NCBI GenBank assembly: GCA_963850215.1
Contig: CAWKKI010000006.1
Location: forward strand, 5,535 to 69,534
Direction: 5' to 3'
Length of the DNA stretch: 64,000 nucleotides
Source of the DNA: an uncultured Actinomycetota bacterium
GTDB lineage: Bacteria > Actinomycetota > Actinomycetes > UBA12327
The translations under genes were made by a program, and so were the position numbers. Each line of letters opens with the position of its first letter. The stretch's first letter is position 1. The notes under the pieces were generated by a model. That model made no database searches. It was not told where the DNA came from and worked only from the letters and a program-made list of their open reading frames with translations. Positions 30,579 to 58,871 of the stretch are shown piece after piece.

Positions 30579-30610
30579 AAGAAGCCCAACGCTTATGCGT
30601 TGGGCTTCTT
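30579..30610. terminator. 14-bp perfect hairpin, probable bidirectional terminator between convergent rsrA and bL37
   Basis: AAGAAGCCCAACGC-TTAT-GCGTTGGGCTTCTT. Confidence 0.7.
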
Positions 30611-30667
30611 GCCGTGGTTGGCGCCGTTCTTCTTGCGGCCGCGGCGCTTACGTGCGCGCTTGCTCAT
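30593..30667 (-). CDS. 50S ribosomal protein bL37 (24 aa, below the ORF-track cut-off)
   Basis: Translates to MSKRARKRRGRKKNGANHGKKPNA; GGAGG RBS upstream; sits next to rsrA/rshA as in other actinobacteria. Confidence 0.9.
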   Translation of the reverse strand: MSKRARKRRGRKKNGANHGKKPNA

Positions 30668-30733: not shown

Positions 30734-31390
30734 TCAGCCGGAGAGGCGGCGGTTCAGAGCGTCGAGCACCGATCGTGCGACCGCGTCAGCCTCGTCGCCG
30801 CGGACCAGTGCGCTGCCTGTGACCACCTGTTCGCCCAGCCGCGGCACCATCACGGACAGGATCGTGAGCGCGACTTCGCGCTGACCCAGGGCTACCACCG
30901 CTGCAGATTCCACCTCGGCGGTGGTGCCAAGAAGCTCGGCGACGGCCGTCAGAGTCGCCTGGGCTACCAATCGTGCCCGCTGGCTCGGTGCGCCGGGCCC
31001 GAGGACCTTGCCCTCGAAGACGCTGCCGCCGGCGGCAACGGTGACCGTCGCCTCGGACTCCTGGCCGCTGGTGCGCAACATGATGGATGCGATGGCGGGC
31101 CGAGGTGCAGCCTCGTCCTCGTCGTCATCTTCGTTGAGGATGACTTCAGGCACGTCTTCGTTGTCGAACTGCACGACGCTGACGATCCGGTGATCGATGT
31201 CGATGTCGAAGCGGGCCATCGCAAGCGACTGAACATCGCGAACGAGCTGCTTGGCAGGCTTGCCGGGTGAGGCCAGGACATGGATTTCGGTTGGCGTGCC
31301 ATCCGGTCCGGTAACGACGCTGGCCGCACGGATGCCCTGTACTTGGCGCAGCGCGTCCTCAAGTTCGGGAAGCAGGCGCAGGGTAGGCAT
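30734..31390 (-). CDS. Uncharacterised two-domain protein
   Basis: 218-aa ORF with protein-like composition: IHVLA..KQLVRDVQS..DIDHRIVSVVQ domain, acidic linker, alpha/beta C-terminal domain. Confidence 0.8.
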   Translation of the reverse strand: MPTLRLLPELEDALRQVQGIRAASVVTGPDGTPTEIHVLASPGKPAKQLVRDVQSLAMARFDIDIDHRIVSVVQFDNEDVPEVILNEDDDEDEAAPRPAIASIMLRTSGQESEATVTVAAGGSVFEGKVLGPGAPSQRARLVAQATLTAVAELLGTTAEVESAAVVALGQREVALTILSVMVPRLGEQVVTGSALVRGDEADAVARSVLDALNRRLSG

Positions 31391-31498
31391 CGAGGGGCTC
31401 CGCGTGTTCGTTGCTCGGTCGTGTCGTTGCTCGGGTGTGCCAGTGGTCGTGCCGTGGTCGTGCCTGTGACTTAGGCGCGCCCACTGCGCGCCTGCTGC

Positions 31499-31972
31499 CT
31501 AGTCTGGCCGAGGCAACTGGGTGAGACCGGCAACCAGGGTGCGGTGTCGCGCTGTTCTTGGCGCACTTTCAGGTGACCTTGGCGCCTCGGAGTCTTCGTC
31601 GGCATCACTCTCGGGTCCCGACCCGCTCGCCGAATGCAGGGTCAGATCGAGGACGTTGGACGTTCGCTGCGACTGCTCCCAGGCACGAGCGCTTGCGCTC
31701 ACGGACTCCTCGGCCTGCTCGGCGGCCTCGTCCAACGAGGCGATGGCCGCCGGAATCACCGTGCGAACGTGCTCGGTCACCGTGCGCAGGCTTTCGCGCT
31801 GCCACCAGCGCAGGAGCCGGGCGGTGGCGGCATCAATCCGGCCGGCAGCCTCAGCCGCCTCGAGTTCTGCGTCGAATCTGGCCGTGGCCGGGTCCGCCCG
31901 CGCGTCAAGCAGCCCTGCGACGAGGTCGGCAAGAGCCGCCTCGCGGGATGGACGTGAGGGAGACATCGTCAC
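31499..31972 (-). CDS. Hypothetical helical protein
   Basis: 157-aa ORF with an ARLLRWWQRES core and a low-complexity tail. Co-oriented with 30734..31390. Confidence 0.65.
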   Translation of the reverse strand: MTMSPSRPSREAALADLVAGLLDARADPATARFDAELEAAEAAGRIDAATARLLRWWQRESLRTVTEHVRTVIPAAIASLDEAAEQAEESVSASARAWEQSQRTSNVLDLTLHSASGSGPESDADEDSEAPRSPESAPRTARHRTLVAGLTQLPRPD

Positions 31973-32286
31973 TCAGGGTATGGGGTGGGTCTTCCCATCG
32001 AGGAAGACGTGGTCTGGTTACGCCGTTCGGGTCAAATGCCCATTTCGCCGCATGACCAGACCGGCCGGGCGCAATTCGCCGATTACAACGGGTAACTGAC
32101 CCGAAAGGGCTACCGTCAGAGGCCAAAGGGGTCGAATTCGGAGGTCTCCACCCACGTGGCGGTACTTGACGCCACCCTGTGTCCCATCCTTCACTTGCGT
32201 TCGGTGCCTGCCCTGCCGATGGGTACGAAACGGTCACTCATCGGATGGTCGCTGCTAACGCAGTGCGGACACCCTAAAACTGCACA

Positions 32287-32536
32287 GAGTGCGAGACGGG
32301 GATCGGCAGCCTTGGTTGGTTGTTGATCAGTTTCGGAGCGGACAACGGACGCCCCGAAGCACATGTAACTCCTTAGCGGAGCGGAATTACGCGCGGGTCT
32401 TAGCGGTACCCGTGACGTGAATCCACTGGAGTGATGTCCCAAATGAGCAAGCTCGTAAGCCTTGTCGAACGCGCTTTCACGGCCCCTGTTGGCATCTGGC
32501 GCTAGTGCCTAGGCTGCCGATCCCCGTCTCGCACTC
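32287..32536 (+). repeat. Perfect 26-bp inverted repeat enclosing 198 bp (candidate structured leader or ncRNA)
   Basis: GAGTGCGAGACGGGGATCGGCAGCCT (32287-32312) is the exact reverse complement of AGGCTGCCGATCCCCGTCTCGCACTC (32511-32536). Confidence 0.9.
32443..32505 (+). CDS. Unannotated 20-aa small ORF MSKLVSLVERAFTAPVGIWR
   Basis: ATG 32443 (alternative in-frame ATG 32434), GGAG at 32428-32431, TAG 32503-32505. Immediately upstream of the HD-GYP gene. Confidence 0.6.
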   Translation: MSKLVSLVERAFTAPVGIWR

Positions 32537-32557
32537 CTTGCCTTCCCCTGCAGGAGT

Positions 32558-33895
32558 GTGATGCGCGGCATGCCCTGGTCAGCGCGCGCGTATGTCACTG
32601 TGCTCGCGGTGATCGCGCTTGCGATCAACGCTGTCGCGGTCGGTCGTGTGCACCAGTGGTGGCCTGTTGCGGCTTTCGCTGTGCTTTACCTAGCGGCGCA
32701 CGTCATGCAGGTTTCGGCTGCGGGCCGAAGTGGCAGCAAGCTGTACCTCACTGTTAGCGAGCCTGTAGCGCTTGCCGCCTGCATCGCCCTTGGGCCCTGG
32801 GCGGCCGCGATCGTGGTGTCCATTTCGATCTTGGACTGGCATCCGGCGCCACTGAAGCGTCTGTTTAACGCGAGTCAGGCGGTGATTTTCACCGTGGCCG
32901 CCGGTGCCATGTACAACGCCCTTGGTGGGCCGCACGTGCTCACACCCAAGTCATTTCCGTCGGTGCTTCTGCCCACGCTCATCTCCGGTCTGACACTCGT
33001 CCTCGTCAATGCGATCCTCGTGGGCCTCGTGCTCGTTCTGGCGGAGGGGGCACGCCCGCTCGCGGTTATCCGTGACACGGTGTATCGACTTCCGGTTCCT
33101 GGCATCGCCTTCAGCCTGTTCGGCCTCCTCATCGCGGTCCTGTGGCAGGAGGTCGGTGTCGTCGCGCTGGCTCTGGTCCTGGTCCCGCTGCTCGCCGCGC
33201 GTTGGGCCATGGGTCAGTTCGCCGCGGAGCGCGACGCATACCAGTCAACGATTCGTTCGCTCGTGCAGGCGGTCGAGACCAAGGACGCCTACACGCGTGG
33301 TCACAGCGAACGAGTCGCCCGCGCGTCGGTGATGATCGCGCAAGTCATCGGGATGGATGACGACCGGACCAACGCAATCGAGTATGCGGGCACGCTGCAC
33401 GACGTCGGCAAGCTTGGGGTGCCAACGTCGGTCCTGCAGAAAACGGGCTCGCTCACAGACGAAGAATTCGCGGCGATCAAGTTGCACCCGGTTCGTGGAC
33501 ACGACATCGTGCGCGACATCCAGTTCCTCGATGAAGCACTCGAAGGCATCTACCACCACCACGAACGCATCGATGGCCGCGGCTATCCGATGGGCCTTAC
33601 CGGCGACCAGATCCCGGAGTTCGCCCGAGTGATCGCCGTCGCGGACGCCTTCGACTCCATGACCTCGACTCGTTCGTATCGCGGTGCGCGCACCATCGCG
33701 GACGCGATCGTTGAGCTTGATAGCTGCAAGGACACACAGTTCGATCCGGTGATGGTTGACGCGTTGGTGCTCGCGGTCGAGGCGACCGGATGGAACGCGG
33801 CTGTCGCCCCCACCGAGGCAGAGATTGCCGCTCAGAACGAACGATTCGCCGTCGACGACGACGACCCACTCCTCGATCTGAGGGCGGCGCAGTGA
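32558..33895 (+). CDS. Membrane-bound HD-GYP domain c-di-GMP phosphodiesterase
   Basis: Multi-TM N-terminus; KDAYTRGHSERV, LHDVGK, HPVRG, HHHERIDGRGYP and ADAFDSMTSTRSYR, all intact. Confidence 0.92.
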   Translation: MMRGMPWSARAYVTVLAVIALAINAVAVGRVHQWWPVAAFAVLYLAAHVMQVSAAGRSGSKLYLTVSEPVALAACIALGPWAAAIVVSISILDWHPAPLKRLFNASQAVIFTVAAGAMYNALGGPHVLTPKSFPSVLLPTLISGLTLVLVNAILVGLVLVLAEGARPLAVIRDTVYRLPVPGIAFSLFGLLIAVLWQEVGVVALALVLVPLLAARWAMGQFAAERDAYQSTIRSLVQAVETKDAYTRGHSERVARASVMIAQVIGMDDDRTNAIEYAGTLHDVGKLGVPTSVLQKTGSLTDEEFAAIKLHPVRGHDIVRDIQFLDEALEGIYHHHERIDGRGYPMGLTGDQIPEFARVIAVADAFDSMTSTRSYRGARTIADAIVELDSCKDTQFDPVMVDALVLAVEATGWNAAVAPTEAEIAAQNERFAVDDDDPLLDLRAAQ

Positions 33896-35184
33896 GCGCC
33901 ACGACCGCAGCGCCGAGGTTCGACGACCCAGGCTCGCGCGGCGTCTTCGTTGTCGGTGCCATTGCGGCGGTCCTGACCACCGCGTCGGTCGCCGCGATTG
34001 TGGTGCAGGGCTCACCCGACGTTGCTTGCGCTCTCGCGTTTTCCGCCTTCGTGGCCGTCGGCCAGTTCATGGCCTTGACCCTGCCGGGCGAGCGCGAAGT
34101 TGCTCCGGTCGCCATGGCCGCAGGTCTCGCCTTTGCGTTGGCTACCAACTTCGCTGGTCGACCACTTCACTACCAGGCCTATGAGGTCACGGCCTTTTTC
34201 GCGATCGCATCGTTGTTGGGCGTGCTTCCGCGGGTCTTCGTGGGCAGGACCCCTCGCATCGACGCGCTGTCCATCCGAGTCATCACGGTTGCCGTCACGG
34301 CATCGGCGTTTCGCGGCAGTCGAATCCATGCCGCCGTGGACCGGCTAAGTCCGACCGCTCTGGCCCTGTTCATGGTCTCGCTCGTGATCTGCGCGCTTCT
34401 CTTCGAAGCCGCGCTGTCGGCGGCGATTCGGGTCGGCTATACCCGCGCCCCCTATGTCCAGACCCTGAGTGACGGTTTGCGAGCCAGCTTTGGAATCGGA
34501 TCCGCGACCGGGTCCATCGCAGTGCTGATCGCCTTGTCGACCGGCGTGATGGGGTTCTGGTCGTTGCTCATCTTCTGTATTCCGCTGCTGCTTCTGCAGG
34601 TCTCGTTCAAGCGCTACGCATCGATTCGCGCGACCTACCGGCAGACGATCGGTGCTCTCGCCCGAGTAACCGAAGTCGGCGGCTACACCGAGAACGGCCA
34701 CTCGCGCCGGGTTTGCGACCTCTCGCTCACGGTGGGTCGCGAGCTGGGCATGTCCGAGGCGGACCTGCTCGATCTTGAGTACGCGGCGCTCATGCACGAC
34801 ATCGGGCAGATCTCGCTGAAGGAGCCGATCCCGGGTGGCGTTACCGTCACTGCGTCCTGGGAGGCGCAGCGCCGGATCGCCGAACTCGGTGCAACGGTCA
34901 TCAAGGAGACCGGCGTTCTCGATCGCGTTGCCGCGATCGTAGAGCGGCAGTCCGACCCCTACCGTCGACCGGGCCAGCAGGTCGATGAGACCCTTCCGCT
35001 GGCCGCGCGCATCATCAAGGTGGTCAATGCATTTGACGACCTCGTTGGCGGATCGGCCGACAGCGGACCACGCCTAGACGCGCTCGAACGACTTCGGATG
35101 GGCATGGCGTACGACTTCGACCCGCGGGTCGTCGAGGTATTGACCCGCGTGGTCGACCGCAACTTGCTGCTCAGCTCGGTCTGA
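33892..35184 (+). CDS. Membrane-bound degenerate HD-GYP-like protein
   Basis: Multi-TM N-terminus; GHSRRV and MHDIGQ are present, but HHE...GYP is replaced by ERQSDPY. GTG start overlaps the upstream TGA. Confidence 0.85.
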   Translation: MSATTAAPRFDDPGSRGVFVVGAIAAVLTTASVAAIVVQGSPDVACALAFSAFVAVGQFMALTLPGEREVAPVAMAAGLAFALATNFAGRPLHYQAYEVTAFFAIASLLGVLPRVFVGRTPRIDALSIRVITVAVTASAFRGSRIHAAVDRLSPTALALFMVSLVICALLFEAALSAAIRVGYTRAPYVQTLSDGLRASFGIGSATGSIAVLIALSTGVMGFWSLLIFCIPLLLLQVSFKRYASIRATYRQTIGALARVTEVGGYTENGHSRRVCDLSLTVGRELGMSEADLLDLEYAALMHDIGQISLKEPIPGGVTVTASWEAQRRIAELGATVIKETGVLDRVAAIVERQSDPYRRPGQQVDETLPLAARIIKVVNAFDDLVGGSADSGPRLDALERLRMGMAYDFDPRVVEVLTRVVDRNLLLSSV

Positions 35185-35510: not shown

Positions 35511-36602
35511 GTGAGCGCAGCCCCCGTGAGCTCAGTTGAGCCGTTCTTGCGTGCCCTGGTGGAGACCGGTGGCTCGGACCTGCACTGCAAGGTGGGCTCC
35601 CCGCCTCGCGTCCGGCTCGACGGTCGCCTGCGCAAGCTGCAGGCCGCATCGCTGACCCCGGTCGACACCGAGTCGATGGTCAACGAGGTCCTGCGCGAGG
35701 ACCTGCGTGAGGACTTCCTGCGGACCAACGAAGCCGACTTCGCCTACTCCATTCCGGGAGTGGGCCGCTTCCGCGTCAACGCCTTCCGCTCCCGTGGGGC
35801 GGCCGGTCTGGTCTTCCGGCGGGTCAGCATCGGCGCTATCCCGCTCGAAGACCTTGGCATGCCCCCGGTGTTGCAGTCGCTGGCCATGGAGCCACGCGGA
35901 CTGGTTCTCGTTACCGGTCCCACCGGATCGGGCAAGAGCACGACGCTTGCTGGCATGGTCGACTACATCAACAAGCACCGCGAGGTGCACATCGTCACCA
36001 TCGAAGACCCCATCGAGGTCATCCACGAAGACCAGATGTCGATGGTCAATCAGCGCGAGGTGCGGGTCGACACCGCGGACTTCGCGGTCGCACTACGTGC
36101 CGCGATGCGCCAAGACCCCGATGTCGTGCTCGTCGGCGAAATGCGCGATGCCGAGACCGTCAAGGCGGCGCTTGCCGCCGCGGAGACCGGCCACTTCGTC
36201 ATGTCGACTCTGCACACCACCGACGCGGAAGAGACCGTCAACCGCATCATCGACTTCTTCGCACCGCATGAGCAGAAGCAGGTGCGGATGGCACTCGCCG
36301 GCTCGCTGCGCGGCATCATCTGCCAGCGCCTTGTGCCACGCGCGGACCAGCTCGGTCGATGTGTCGCTACCGAGATCGCCATCAACACTGGTCGAGTGGC
36401 CGACGCCATCGTCGACCCCGACAAGACCTCGACCATCAACGAACTGATCCAAGAGGGCACGTTCTACGGGATGCAGACTTTCGACCAGCACCTCGTCGCA
36501 CTCATCCGCGACGGCGTCATCACTCTCGATGACGCCATGTTGGCCTCGACAAACCCGCACGACCTCACCGTCGAGCTCCGTCGCCTTGGCCTCGTCGCGT
36601 AG
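35511..36602 (+). CDS. pilT: Type IV pilus retraction ATPase PilT/PilU family
   Basis: GSDLH, GRFRVN, GPTGSGKSTT, TIEDPIE, RQDPDVVLVGEMRD, AETGH..STLH and GMQTFDQ motifs. Confidence 0.9.
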   Translation: MSAAPVSSVEPFLRALVETGGSDLHCKVGSPPRVRLDGRLRKLQAASLTPVDTESMVNEVLREDLREDFLRTNEADFAYSIPGVGRFRVNAFRSRGAAGLVFRRVSIGAIPLEDLGMPPVLQSLAMEPRGLVLVTGPTGSGKSTTLAGMVDYINKHREVHIVTIEDPIEVIHEDQMSMVNQREVRVDTADFAVALRAAMRQDPDVVLVGEMRDAETVKAALAAAETGHFVMSTLHTTDAEETVNRIIDFFAPHEQKQVRMALAGSLRGIICQRLVPRADQLGRCVATEIAINTGRVADAIVDPDKTSTINELIQEGTFYGMQTFDQHLVALIRDGVITLDDAMLASTNPHDLTVELRRLGLVA

Positions 36603-56702: not shown

Positions 56703-58871
56703 ATGCGTTCGTGGGCCGGTTTCGTCTACCGTCACCGCAAGCTCGTACTCGTTGTTTGGCTCATCGCCCTGTTCGGCACTGGCTTCATTGCGAAGTCCTG
56801 GGGTACTCAGTACTCCAGCGCTTTCAACCTGCCCAATACCGAGTCCACCCACGCCTTGTCCGTGCTCAGCGAGAAGTTCCCCTCACAGGCGGGCGCTTCG
56901 CTGCAGTTGGTCTTCCACGCGAAGACCGGCACGGTGACCGACAGCACCAACAAGCCCGAGATCGAAGCGCTGCTGACCAAGATTGAGGCAACGCCTCACG
57001 TCGACACCGTCCAGAGCCCGTTTGACGCCACCGCGGCCGGACAGATCTCCAAGGACGAGTCGGTCGCCTACGCCAACGTCATCTTCGACCAGCGTTACCC
57101 GACTCCCGCGGTGGTGAGCCCGGTCATCGACACCGCACTTGCGGCTAACAGCACGACTCTGCAGGTCGAGGCGGGCGGTCCGCTTGTCTCGCAGTCCCAG
57201 AGTCAGCCGCCGAGTTCTGAGGCGTTGGGTCTGCTTGCAGCGGCACTCATCTTGCTGATCACGTTCGGCTCTTTGGTCGCAATGACGCTCCCGCTGATCA
57301 GCGCGGTCGTCGCGCTGGGCACCGCCATCAGTGTTATCGGGATGGTGTCCCATGGCCTTCAGATCGCCGAGTTCGGCCCCACCCTTGCGACCTTGATCGG
57401 GCTGGGCGTCGGTATCGACTATGCGCTGTTCATCGTCAGTCGGTTCCGCCAGACCTTGCATGACGGGGAGACCGTGGAGAACTCCGTCATCATGTCGCTC
57501 GACTCGTCGGGCCGCGCGGTCGTGTTCGCGGGTGTAACGGTTTGCATCGCGTTGCTCGGGCTCTTCCTGCTCCACGTCAGCTTCTTGTACGGCATCGCCA
57601 TCTCAGCCAGCATTGCCGTCGCCTTCACGATGCTCTCTGCAGTGACATTGCTGCCAGCCATCCTGGGGATGCTTGGCCCTCGGGTCGACAAGGGCAAGGT
57701 GCCCTTCCGCAACATCGATGCCAACGAGCACCCTGGTTGGGCTCGTTGGGCAGGGCAAATCAAGCGCCGCCCGTGGGTCTTCGCAATCGCAGGCTTGCTG
57801 ATCGTGCTCACCTTGGCCATCCCGGTTCTGTCGATGCGGCTCGGTTCGTCTGACGCTGGAACTGCACCGAAGTCCGACACGACACGGCGCGCCTACGACT
57901 TGCTCGCCGAAGGCTTCGGCCCTGGTTTCAACGGTCCGTTCACGGTGACCGTGCAGTTGCCGAAGGGCAAGGAAGCCGACGCGGCCGCGGTGTCCGATCT
58001 TGACGCGCGCCTTCGCGCGGCGGATGGCGTTGCCGCGGTGTCGCCGCCGATCTACAGCAAGGACGGAACCGCCGCGATCATCCAGGTCGTGCCCACCACC
58101 GGGCCGCAGGCGGCCGCCACCACCGAACTCTTGAAGTACTTGCGCACCCAGGTGATTCCCTCGGCCGTAGCCGGCAGCGATGTCGTCGTCTCAGTCGGAG
58201 GCATCACCGCCATCTTCGAGGACTTTTCTCAGGTGCTGCAGCAGAAGTTGCCGTTGTTCATCGGCGTGGTGGTTCTGGTCAGCATGTTCTTGCTGATGTT
58301 GGTCTTCCGCAGTCTCGTGATCCCGGTCAAGGCAGCGGTCATGAACCTGCTCTCGATCCTCGCTGCCTTCGGCGTGGTTGTGGCCGTTTTCCAATGGGGC
58401 TGGGGCGCGAGCCTCATCGGCGTCGATGCGACCGGGCCGATCGAGGCCTTCCTCCCGGTGATGCTGTTCGCGATCCTGTTTGGGCTGTCGATGGACTACG
58501 AGGTGTTCCTCGTGTCTCGAATGCACGAGGAGTGGCTGCGCAAGAAGGACAACGACTACGCGGTGGAAACCGGTCTGACCAAGACCGGCGGAGTAATCAC
58601 GGCGGCCGCAACGATCATGATCGTGGTGTTCGCGTCGTTCATCCTCGGTGGCGAACGAGTCATCAAGCTCTTCGGGCTCGGCTTCGCGTGTGCGGTCTTC
58701 ATCGACGCGTTCATCATTCGTTCGGCCATCGTGCCCGGCGTGATGTTCATCATCGGCAAGGCGAACTGGTACCTGCCTAGCTGGCTCGACCGGATCCTGC
58801 CGCAGTTGTCGATTGAGCCGGCAGCAGAGCACGGCGAGCCGGAGGAGAAGGAACCCGCCACCGTCGGCTAG
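56703..58871 (+). CDS. MMPL/RND family transporter
   Basis: GVGIDYALFIVSRFR, GFGPGFNGP and FGLSMDYEVFLVSR motifs. Confidence 0.95.
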   Translation: MRSWAGFVYRHRKLVLVVWLIALFGTGFIAKSWGTQYSSAFNLPNTESTHALSVLSEKFPSQAGASLQLVFHAKTGTVTDSTNKPEIEALLTKIEATPHVDTVQSPFDATAAGQISKDESVAYANVIFDQRYPTPAVVSPVIDTALAANSTTLQVEAGGPLVSQSQSQPPSSEALGLLAAALILLITFGSLVAMTLPLISAVVALGTAISVIGMVSHGLQIAEFGPTLATLIGLGVGIDYALFIVSRFRQTLHDGETVENSVIMSLDSSGRAVVFAGVTVCIALLGLFLLHVSFLYGIAISASIAVAFTMLSAVTLLPAILGMLGPRVDKGKVPFRNIDANEHPGWARWAGQIKRRPWVFAIAGLLIVLTLAIPVLSMRLGSSDAGTAPKSDTTRRAYDLLAEGFGPGFNGPFTVTVQLPKGKEADAAAVSDLDARLRAADGVAAVSPPIYSKDGTAAIIQVVPTTGPQAAATTELLKYLRTQVIPSAVAGSDVVVSVGGITAIFEDFSQVLQQKLPLFIGVVVLVSMFLLMLVFRSLVIPVKAAVMNLLSILAAFGVVVAVFQWGWGASLIGVDATGPIEAFLPVMLFAILFGLSMDYEVFLVSRMHEEWLRKKDNDYAVETGLTKTGGVITAAATIMIVVFASFILGGERVIKLFGLGFACAVFIDAFIIRSAIVPGVMFIIGKANWYLPSWLDRILPQLSIEPAAEHGEPEEKEPATVG

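Follow-up and report, generated by a model that had tools for sequence, protein, structure and literature searches.

A conserved leader RNA with a predicted micro-peptide gene accompanies the HD-GYP operon hdgA-hdgB in Actinomycetota

INTRODUCTION

In Streptomyces venezuelae, the HD-GYP proteins HdgA and HdgB (vnz24090/vnz24095) are encoded by an operon that pairs an intact HD-GYP protein carrying a MASE9-type membrane domain with a degenerate HD-GYP protein, downstream of sigR/sigH-rsrA/rshA (PMC6205966). Two reports give neither a phenotype nor a known signal for the pair (PMC6205966, PMC13232838), and a 2026 paper still lists both proteins without a phenotype. The MASE9 domain is thought to bind a ligand within the membrane (bioRxiv 10.1101/2021.11.05.467447). 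Here, we describe an orthologous operon in a 64,000-nucleotide (nt) stretch of DNA from an uncultured Actinomycetota bacterium (GenBank assembly GCA_963850215.1, contig CAWKKI010000006.1, positions 5,535 to 69,534; hereafter “the window”), in which hdgA is preceded by a conserved structured RNA containing a small open reading frame (sORF) of 20 codons, the micro-ORF. Genes for two further proteins, p218 and p157, lie upstream on the opposite strand. An initial annotation of the window had grouped these parts into a candidate signalling module that would connect a peptide to cyclic di-GMP (c-di-GMP), and it had stated that the Streptomyces pair has no known input signal, in agreement with the two reports above.

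The operon in the window resembles that of S. venezuelae in its pairing of MASE9-type intact and degenerate HD-GYP genes and in its position downstream of the sigma and anti-sigma factor genes. The Streptomyces loci that we examined differ from it in having a spacer of 210-500 nt without a match to our covariance model of the RNA (R1), without p218 or p157, and without an sORF detectable by sequence patterns. Relative to Streptomyces, the window's lineage has ~2 kb inserted, comprising the ribosomal protein gene bL37, p218, p157, the RNA, and the sORF.

The kinds of parts found here are familiar, namely a leader RNA with an upstream ORF (uORF) and a small membrane protein encoded beside its partner; the combination and its target are new. 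KdpF, MgtR, PmrR, and MgrB are membrane peptides 20-30 residues long that have a basic N-terminus and form a hydrophobic helix; each is encoded beside its polytopic partner and co-transcribed with it. The micro-peptide of the window would likewise be a short peptide co-transcribed with a membrane partner, but many of its copies are amphipathic instead of transmembrane. In a non-exhaustive literature search, we found no c-di-GMP enzyme or MASE domain with a small-peptide partner of this sort. RNAIII/hld and SgrS/SgrT share with the present element a structured, apparently abundant RNA of ~200-270 nt that contains a short translated ORF; those RNAs are free-standing, whereas this one is the 5' leader of an operon and has no known base-pairing target. 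The TnaC and SecM/MifM class offers a third likeness: a short ORF in a structured leader, conserved best at its C-terminal residues, with access to the downstream Shine-Dalgarno sequence depending on pairing. However, the peptide here is too short to reach a translocon before its release from the ribosome, and no metabolite suggests itself as the sensed signal. Finally, the c-di-GMP-I and -II riboswitches are also structured RNAs acting in cis upstream of a c-di-GMP turnover gene, but the RNA here has no Rfam match.

RESULTS

A conserved structured RNA lies upstream of hdgA

The 585-nt spacer between p157 and hdgA (31973-32557) folds better than shuffled sequences on both strands (z-scores of -6.15 on the forward and -4.60 on the reverse strand), with none of 100 shuffles doing as well. 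Most of this folding signal comes from a 34-nt inverted repeat (32282-32315 and 32508-32541, 91% complementary) whose arms enclose ~190 nt, including the 20-codon ORF. The initial annotation had described the entire ~590-bp region as structured. Its folding does exceed that of shuffled sequence, but the conserved structured part amounts to only ~270 nt in the 3' half of the spacer. Two alternative origins for the repeat were rejected: a miniature inverted-repeat transposable element, because the repeat is single-copy in the 2.47-Mb assembly, and a DNA-level palindrome recognized by a protein, because G-U pairs occur only on the forward strand and the arms lie ~190 nt apart.

To define the element, nine leaders were aligned with MAFFT (alignment A4), consisting of the window, two loci found by blastn, and six of 80 HdgA loci taken from named genome contigs. 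The RNAalifold fold of A4 contains a closing helix of 23 bp (P1), a hairpin (P3), and a possible helix (P2), and R1 was built from this alignment. Among 38 distinct copies, whose alignment was fitted to R1 and therefore leans towards the structure, 92.4% of cells were paired, compared to 84.0% in shuffled alignments and 39-47% with slid partners, and 22 of the 52 pairs were changed on both sides, a number reached by none of 500 shuffles. An independent MAFFT/RNAalifold run on nine sequences found 16 of 52 pairs changed on both sides. P1 persists in copies from other classes, where its sequence is entirely different. Because G-U pairs are common on the forward strand, the helices covary, and R1 scores 203 bits on that strand vs. 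48 on the other, the fold belongs to the RNA of the hdgA-sense transcript; the minus-strand scores are the mirror image of P1.

Between and beside these helices, several unpaired blocks are invariant or almost so: the GACAACTG box before P1, AGCGGAGCGGA, the AGCGG in the loop of P3 (the third such motif), GUGAC on the 3' side of P3, and a GGGG/GGAG box preceding the ORF. In RNAalifold, the possible helix P2 would join the invariant AGCGGAGCGG to codons 5-7 of the ORF, yet AGCGGAGCGGA is kept in the window and the window's family even though its predicted P2 partner in the sORF is not. A covariance-model search of the window region and four other copies against Rfam 15 returned nothing at E<=1 apart from chance-level matches to Antizyme_FSE (E 0.92) and mir-4449 (E 0.38), with no match to c-di-GMP riboswitches, 6S, or 6C. 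The initial annotation had missed that the RNA constitutes a family of its own, deeply conserved in its covarying helices and its invariant unpaired blocks.

The RNA is distributed with hdgA and p218

Across 40 relatives, blastn found only three, with short matches in two other families, so a covariance model was needed to trace the element. Both copies found by blastn sit upstream of an HdgA orthologue and carry a similar ORF of 20-21 codons. When R1 was run on 83 sequence sources, only the nine training loci matched, apart from L082, L020, and L051 (E 0.04-0.34), which we took as chance. In whole genomes, the model matched six of seven relatives from the order to which the window belongs, missing only one whose genome is 60% complete. 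Of 151 genomes sampled across the class, 56 had a match (42/119 of good quality; 36/103 genera), as did four genomes from other classes (E values of 6e-8 to 3e-17) in a sample of 151 taken across the phylum. There was one forward-strand match per genome in 55 of the 56, and two in G121. A second match in the window itself (58538-58815, reverse strand; 17.2 bits, E 1.9e-4) lies inside a 722-codon ORF and is probably due to chance.

The initial annotation had named a lack of co-occurrence across genomes as grounds for refuting the module; the parts do co-occur. HdgA is present in 75 of the 151 class genomes; R1 was found in 56 of these 75 and in none of the 76 others. Orthologue-level p218 accompanies R1 in 53 of 56 positive genomes and occurs in none of the 95 negative ones, although such counts share kinship and are not independent events. 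Two unpublished genomes, G037 (carrying R1, p218, and HdgA) and G020 (carrying HdgA only), are counted in these class figures; leaving them out alters each count by one and leaves the conclusions the same. At the level of single loci, HdgA lies directly 3' of the element in 37 of 38 cases, the remaining locus ending 34 nt past the element. Upstream, p218 is found on the opposite strand in 35 of the 38, with <400 nt of upstream flank in the three misses, and p157 was detected in 26. Seen from the operon, 80 HdgA-HdgB loci have SigH-RshA upstream in 75 cases and HdgB in all 80, and p218 appears only in the six that carry the RNA, five of which also have p157.

Of the three R1-positive genomes in which p218 was not found, one is a 60%-complete assembly and two, G047 and G076, belong to a single genus. 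The G047 element, which was read directly, is without the AGCGG/P3 core, while G076 was judged by a weak R1 match. This joint loss in G047 suggests that the RNA core and p218 belong together. Two families split identically for R1 and p218 (one of two genomes in f10 and four of five in f24), and one of the misses has its HdgA cut by a contig end. Viewed as a whole, the G047 locus (L131, contig C4, reverse strand, in the rshA-hdgA spacer) has the promoter box, the GACAACT box, the closing helix, and a 21-codon sORF, with the AGCGG/P3 core, p218, and p157 all missing.

The micro-ORF carries a coding signature

The micro-ORF product, MSKLVSLVERAFTAPVGIWR, ends in Trp-Arg. All but one of 39 copies, L042 (out of frame), keep the reading frame open, with lengths of 13-25 codons in the class and 27-29 in other classes. 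Across codons 2-13 of 31 distinct sequences, summed entropy at codon positions 1, 2, and 3 was 9.63, 6.72, and 14.63; serine codons swap between TCC and AGC, and all three stop codons are in use. The codon periodicity and the frame held open in 38 of 39 copies indicate, as sequence signals, that the micro-ORF is translated. A conserved GGAG box upstream completes the features expected of a small ORF. The initial annotation had proposed scanning the regions upstream of the HD-GYP genes for ORFs of 15-35 codons ending in Trp and one further residue, and a conserved sORF with this ending was found upstream of orthologous HD-GYP pairs.

The peptides share a pattern rather than a sequence: Met, a basic residue at position 2 or 3, Ile or Leu, and a hydrophobic or amphipathic stretch that usually includes Glu9, followed by a Gly/Ala-rich turn and a Trp at one of the last three positions. 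All three copies from other classes, and some of those from the class itself, are plainly hydrophobic and resemble membrane helices. Related sORFs also occur upstream of hdgA where R1 has no match, in G047, L010, L132, L133, and five Nocardiopsis loci (ending ..GWSWW), and in G047 the promoter box, GACAACT box, and P1 are kept beside the sORF. No Pfam or NCBIfam family matches the micro-peptide. When Glu9 was compared with charged residues of the MASE9 helices for covariation, only three lineages were without Glu9, and several HdgA frames were misassigned.

The leader is present in RNA libraries

A TTGAC(G)-N17-18-TTCACT pattern precedes the element by 25-193 nt in 34 of 38 loci and, judged by its sequence, may be read by a particular sigma factor. 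The window's copy has a perfect -35-like hexamer and a -10-like hexamer without the usual A at position 2; CACACCC before TTCACT is also conserved. A generic promoter and terminator scan found no sigma-70 site and a single weak terminator-like site within a P1 arm.

Four metatranscriptome runs from four studies each yielded one short contig (156, 165, 202, and 241 nt; 90-97% alike) from relatives. On the target region 31400-33900, these cover 32333-32485, 32314-32480, 32315-32499, and 32336-32571. The ends of two contigs coincide to within a base (32314/32315) immediately inside P1's 5' arm, and one contig extends into hdgA. The flanking genes have no contig cover in these runs, but flanks of relatives could fall below the 88% threshold, so this is no evidence of absence. 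That RNA of a minor community member assembles in libraries of 30-60 million letters suggests an abundant, stable RNA species. Together with the perfect 23-bp duplex, the contigs also suggest endonucleolytic processing at P1, e.g., by RNase III.

p218 and p157 represent conserved families without annotation

Neither p218 nor p157 matched anything in Pfam at E<=0.01 or in NCBIfam at E<=0.1. We found 2148 homologues of p218, the best 120 of which are 65-72% identical and all unnamed or “hypothetical”. Its AlphaFold2 model (predicted local distance difference test, pLDDT, of 80) has an N domain with the common ferredoxin-like order alpha-beta-beta-alpha-beta, which gives Z ~8 to many unrelated domains, an acidic linker, and a C domain of two beta-beta-beta-alpha repeats. 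This C domain resembles the amino-acid-binding regulatory domain of citramalate synthase/LeuA (Z 9.2 over 109 residues, root-mean-square deviation [rmsd] 3.0; Foldseek E 1.9e-5). Going by the model, p218 may be a ligand-binding regulator at most. Its link with the HD-GYP genes holds for orthologues within the phylum. In nine other class genomes, all that is present is a paralogue of 33-36% identity, and the four paralogue loci examined (G012, G036, G027, and G039; L134-L137) have no HD-GYP gene nearby. An alpha/beta hydrolase gene neighbors the paralogue in two of these four, and ATP-grasp, Ku, ThiF, and TetR genes are also found. Many genomes have this paralogue, some of those without the RNA among them. 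Protein-atlas clusters of p218 are unannotated, some of them labelled Gemmatimonadota, which we treat as a lead only.

For p157, there were 246 homologues and a model with a pLDDT of 81, consisting of two short helices, one helix of ~70 residues, and a disordered tail; a fold search gave no match at E<=0.001. After the variable tail, its C-terminus (31499-31600, reverse strand) has a conserved ..H-R-R-R-L-L-V-A-G-L-T.. motif that resembles a docking peptide. The initial annotation had cast both proteins as partners of the HD-GYP system. Their co-occurrence makes them candidate partners, the linkage being tight for p218 and looser for p157.

Locus layout and the HD-GYP pair

All of the parts listed by the initial annotation, from bL37 through p218, p157, the structured spacer, the 20-residue ORF, and the intact and degenerate HD-GYP pair to the biotin carrier gene, are in place (Table 1). 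Upstream of the block, on the forward strand, are genes for an SRAP peptidase, a SigH/SigR-type extracytoplasmic function sigma factor, and a ZAS anti-sigma factor (zf-HC2, E 3.6e-11). These are followed by bL37, p218, and p157 on the reverse strand, then the spacer, and then HdgA, HdgB, a biotin carrier, and a PilT-type ATPase on the forward strand.

Table 1. Coordinates of features in the window
Feature	Position	Strand	Remarks
bL37 ribosomal protein gene	30593-30667	-	24 codons + stop; NCBIfam NF047428, 47.7 bits vs. cut-off of 30
p218	30734-31390	-	218-residue protein of no described family
p157	31499-31972	-	Helical protein with disordered tail
Promoter-like box TTGACG-N18-TTCACT	32166-32195	+	Read from sequence
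Whole conserved RNA element (R1)	32270-32541	+	202.7 bits on + vs. 47.7 on -; alignments A4, A5
Single-stranded box just 5' of P1	32276-32284	+	GACAACTG in most copies; AAAACTG in the window
P1 closing helix, 5' arm	32287-32310	+	23 pairs; 96.6% of cells paired; 10 pairs changed on both sides
AGCGGAGCGGA block	32375-32385	+	Unchanged in every class-level copy shown
P3 hairpin	32387-32420	+	9 pairs; 95.6% paired; 6 changed on both sides
Micro-ORF	32443-32505	+	20 codons + TAG; GGAG box ~11 nt upstream
P1 closing helix, 3' arm	32513-32536	+	Pyrimidine-rich at distal end
HdgA orthologue	32561-33895	+	MASE9 membrane domain and intact HD-GYP; AGGAG at 32552-32556
HdgB orthologue	33892-35184	+	Multiple transmembrane segments; degenerate HD-GYP with HD kept and GYP block lost

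HdgA matches HD_5 (PF13487, E 5.1e-39), has HDVGK and HHHERIDGRGYP in its translation, and thus contains both the H-D dyad and the HHE..DG.GYP block. Residues 75-216 match MASE9 (PF20972) at 31.2 bits, above the gathering cut-off of 24.3. HdgB gives a weaker HD_5 match (E 2.9e-12) and keeps HDIGQ, but in a pairwise alignment it reads ERQSDPYRRPG where HdgA has HHHERIDGRGYP, so that the GYP block is missing; a Pfam search at E<=0.01 did not match MASE9 in it. Its S. venezuelae counterpart is likewise the degenerate member of the pair, according to the accessible text (PMC6205966). The likely start of HdgB is the GTG at 33892, which overlaps the hdgA stop codon as GTGA, rather than 33790. HdgB is followed by the biotin carrier of 71 residues (NF004547, E 7e-32). 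A PilT/PilU-family ATPase gene (35511-36602, forward strand; TIGR01420, E 2.7e-139) lies 3' of the biotin carrier, and among the 80 HdgA loci, a PilT match occurs only in the six carrying the RNA element.

Because bL37 sits on the same strand as p218 and 66 nt 3' of it, p157-p218-bL37 may form one operon. In the six element loci with 4-kb flanks (L008, L009, L011, L023, L029, and L042), a full-length bL37 match follows p218 every time, and bL37 was not found in the Streptomyces-type hdgA loci examined. It is also present at L133, a locus with an sORF and without p218.

DISCUSSION

The reading that we favor, at a probability of roughly 45%, is that the micro-peptide is a small protein that associates with the membrane as a partner of the MASE9 domains and that the RNA controls how much of it is made relative to the poorly expressed enzymes. 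In this model, hdgA-hdgB would be transcribed from the conserved promoter-like box with a leader of ~350 nt, some 270 nt of which would form the conserved RNA, in which three AGCGG motifs, P3, and a translated micro-ORF of ~20 codons lie within a domain closed by P1. The resulting peptide, with its Lys-rich start, hydrophobic or amphipathic helix, Gly/Ala turn, and C-terminal Trp, would bind the MASE9 membrane domains of HdgA and/or HdgB as a subunit or regulator made from its partner's own transcript. P1 could set the ratio of products in two ways, by holding its pyrimidine-rich 3' arm off the hdgA ribosome-binding site and by serving, as a long perfect duplex, as a likely processing site that releases a stable inner RNA with the sORF. 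Of these elements, the fold and its strand, the coding signature, the synteny, the distribution, and the occurrence in RNA libraries are observed; binding of the peptide to MASE9, processing, the Shine-Dalgarno switch, and any part played by p218 and p157 are proposals. We favor this model because of the character of the peptide and its fixed position in the same transcript, and also because of the published view that MASE9 binds its ligand in the membrane and that HdgA and HdgB have no known signal. Co-folding is consistent with it: the MASE9 domain and the peptide gave an interface score (ipSAE) of 0.54, compared to 0.01 for the best of three controls, with 88% of contacts reproducible, a partner pLDDT of at least 65, and a tool verdict of “weak support”. 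The peptide is a candidate ligand or regulator of the membrane domains, as the initial annotation proposed: its character is membrane-like, clearly hydrophobic in deep-branching copies, and the co-fold gave a weak pass.

Several observations weigh against this model. In the calibration of the co-folding tool, 58 of 80 solved complexes and 2 of 110 mismatched pairs passed this mark, but both of those mismatches scored 0.60 or below, as did only 7 of the 80. In this range, the tool cautions, a pass is more likely to be wrong than right when the pairing was not already probable. In addition, the co-fold used an upstream-extended reading of the sORF with 32 residues, and its controls need not be hydrophobic. 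Most Actinomycetes peptides carry Glu9 and polar residues, and they are both too short and too polar for a classic transmembrane helix. The sequence patterns used did not find the sORF in Streptomyces loci, and HdgA and HdgB must therefore work there without it or with an overlooked form. The metatranscriptome runs were found by exact words from this same stretch, so that coverage of the core alone is partly ascertainment, and the contigs show neither RNA ends nor levels. In thermodynamic folding, the mean unpaired probability from the hdgA Shine-Dalgarno sequence to the AUG was 0.46 with P1 and 0.32 without its 5' arm, being lower in 21 of 22 loci, but this difference is modest, its p-value ignores kinship, and there was no shuffled-arm control. 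The lower access without the 5' arm would fit the 3' arm of P1 acting as an anti-Shine-Dalgarno element when P1 is open. P2, for its part, shows zero compensatory changes and is broken in the window and its family. Finally, conservation at the C-terminus beside the stop codon would also suit a regulatory arrest peptide, and a peptide partner leaves the invariant AGCGG blocks unexplained.

Those last two points lead to the main alternatives. The leader could act purely in cis, with translation of the uORF, or stalling at Gly-Trp-x-Trp-stop, remodelling P1/P2 and setting hdgA-hdgB translation while the released peptide has no function. The C-terminal G-x-x-W by the stop codon is the most widely kept feature of the peptide across differing N-termini, and a chain of 13-29 residues would still be wholly within the ribosome exit tunnel at termination. 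The sORF is also enclosed by P1, the 3' arm of which can compete for the Shine-Dalgarno box of hdgA, and in most copies P2 would pair codons 5-7 with the invariant AGCGG block (86% of cells paired), a pairing that is absent from the window and its family. However, the stop codon lies 5 to ~45 nt from the 3' arm of P1, which often puts that arm out of reach of a terminating ribosome, and all three stop codons are in use. Moreover, the N-terminal half of the peptide is conserved at the amino acid level, and hydrophobic, membrane-like versions recur in separate lineages, which would be needless for an arrest peptide. On balance, we consider a purely cis-acting leader less probable than a peptide partner but a strong rival to it. 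A binding site in the RNA, made up of AGCGGAGCGGA, the AGCGG loop, and GUGAC and controlling both the sORF and hdgA, would be compatible with either of these two models, and p218, possibly with p157, would be the obvious candidate to read it. Such a site would explain why twelve unpaired letters do not vary between families, including those that have lost the predicted pairing partner, and why p218 orthologues track R1; the one genus with an sORF, P1, and promoter but without the AGCGG/P3 core is also without p218 and p157, and the C domain of p218 folds like a regulatory domain that binds amino acids. No other reading accounts both for the invariance of these single-stranded letters and for the fact that G047 is without the core as well as p218. 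Yet p218 has an acidic linker and no known RNA-binding domain, superpositions on the double-stranded RNA-binding domain and S5 were poor (TM-score of at most 0.17, rmsd >10), no Rfam riboswitch matched at E<=1, and the co-occurrence may be plain inherited synteny, with the core-less case coming from a single genus. We judge a ligand- or protein-binding RNA to be slightly less probable than the cis-acting leader.

More distant is the idea of a type I toxin-antitoxin-like or other selfish locus for a small hydrophobic peptide that came to lie beside hdgA by chance. The peptide is indeed small and hydrophobic or amphipathic, and its mRNA is locked by a long helix between its 5' and 3' parts, as in some type I toxin mRNAs. 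Nevertheless, the locus is single-copy in the assembly, there is one match per genome in 55 of 56, the element keeps one position throughout many families and in at least two classes, and no antisense element was seen, so that we give this idea hardly any credence. At the other extreme, bL37-p218-p157, the AGCGG-P3 RNA, the micro-peptide, and HdgA-HdgB could form one self-contained signalling device, in which a membrane peptide gates a c-di-GMP phosphodiesterase and the RNA, read by p218, sets its supply; as a complete scheme, this strikes us as quite improbable.

The HD-GYP pair is known, but the RNA family, the micro-peptide family, and the linkage with p218 and p157 appear to be undescribed; the literature searches returned no account of an RNA or small ORF upstream of hdgA. 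The locus contributes one new RNA family and two conserved protein families of unassigned function tied to it. Actinobacteria are not known to have the classical RNA chaperones, and for this reason an abundant structured RNA with invariant single-stranded motifs and a strictly co-occurring protein is a lead to new RNA biology in the phylum. For HdgA and HdgB, conserved c-di-GMP proteins without a known signal, the locus offers a testable candidate input, since MASE9 is a sensor domain without a known ligand and the micro-peptide from the same transcript is a candidate for that role. If the self-contained device outlined above proves real, a MASE-type sensor domain would, with the micro-peptide, have a known direct ligand or subunit for the first time, p218 would be a ligand-binding protein of a new family, and c-di-GMP signalling would have a peptide-plus-RNA input layer conserved across the phylum.

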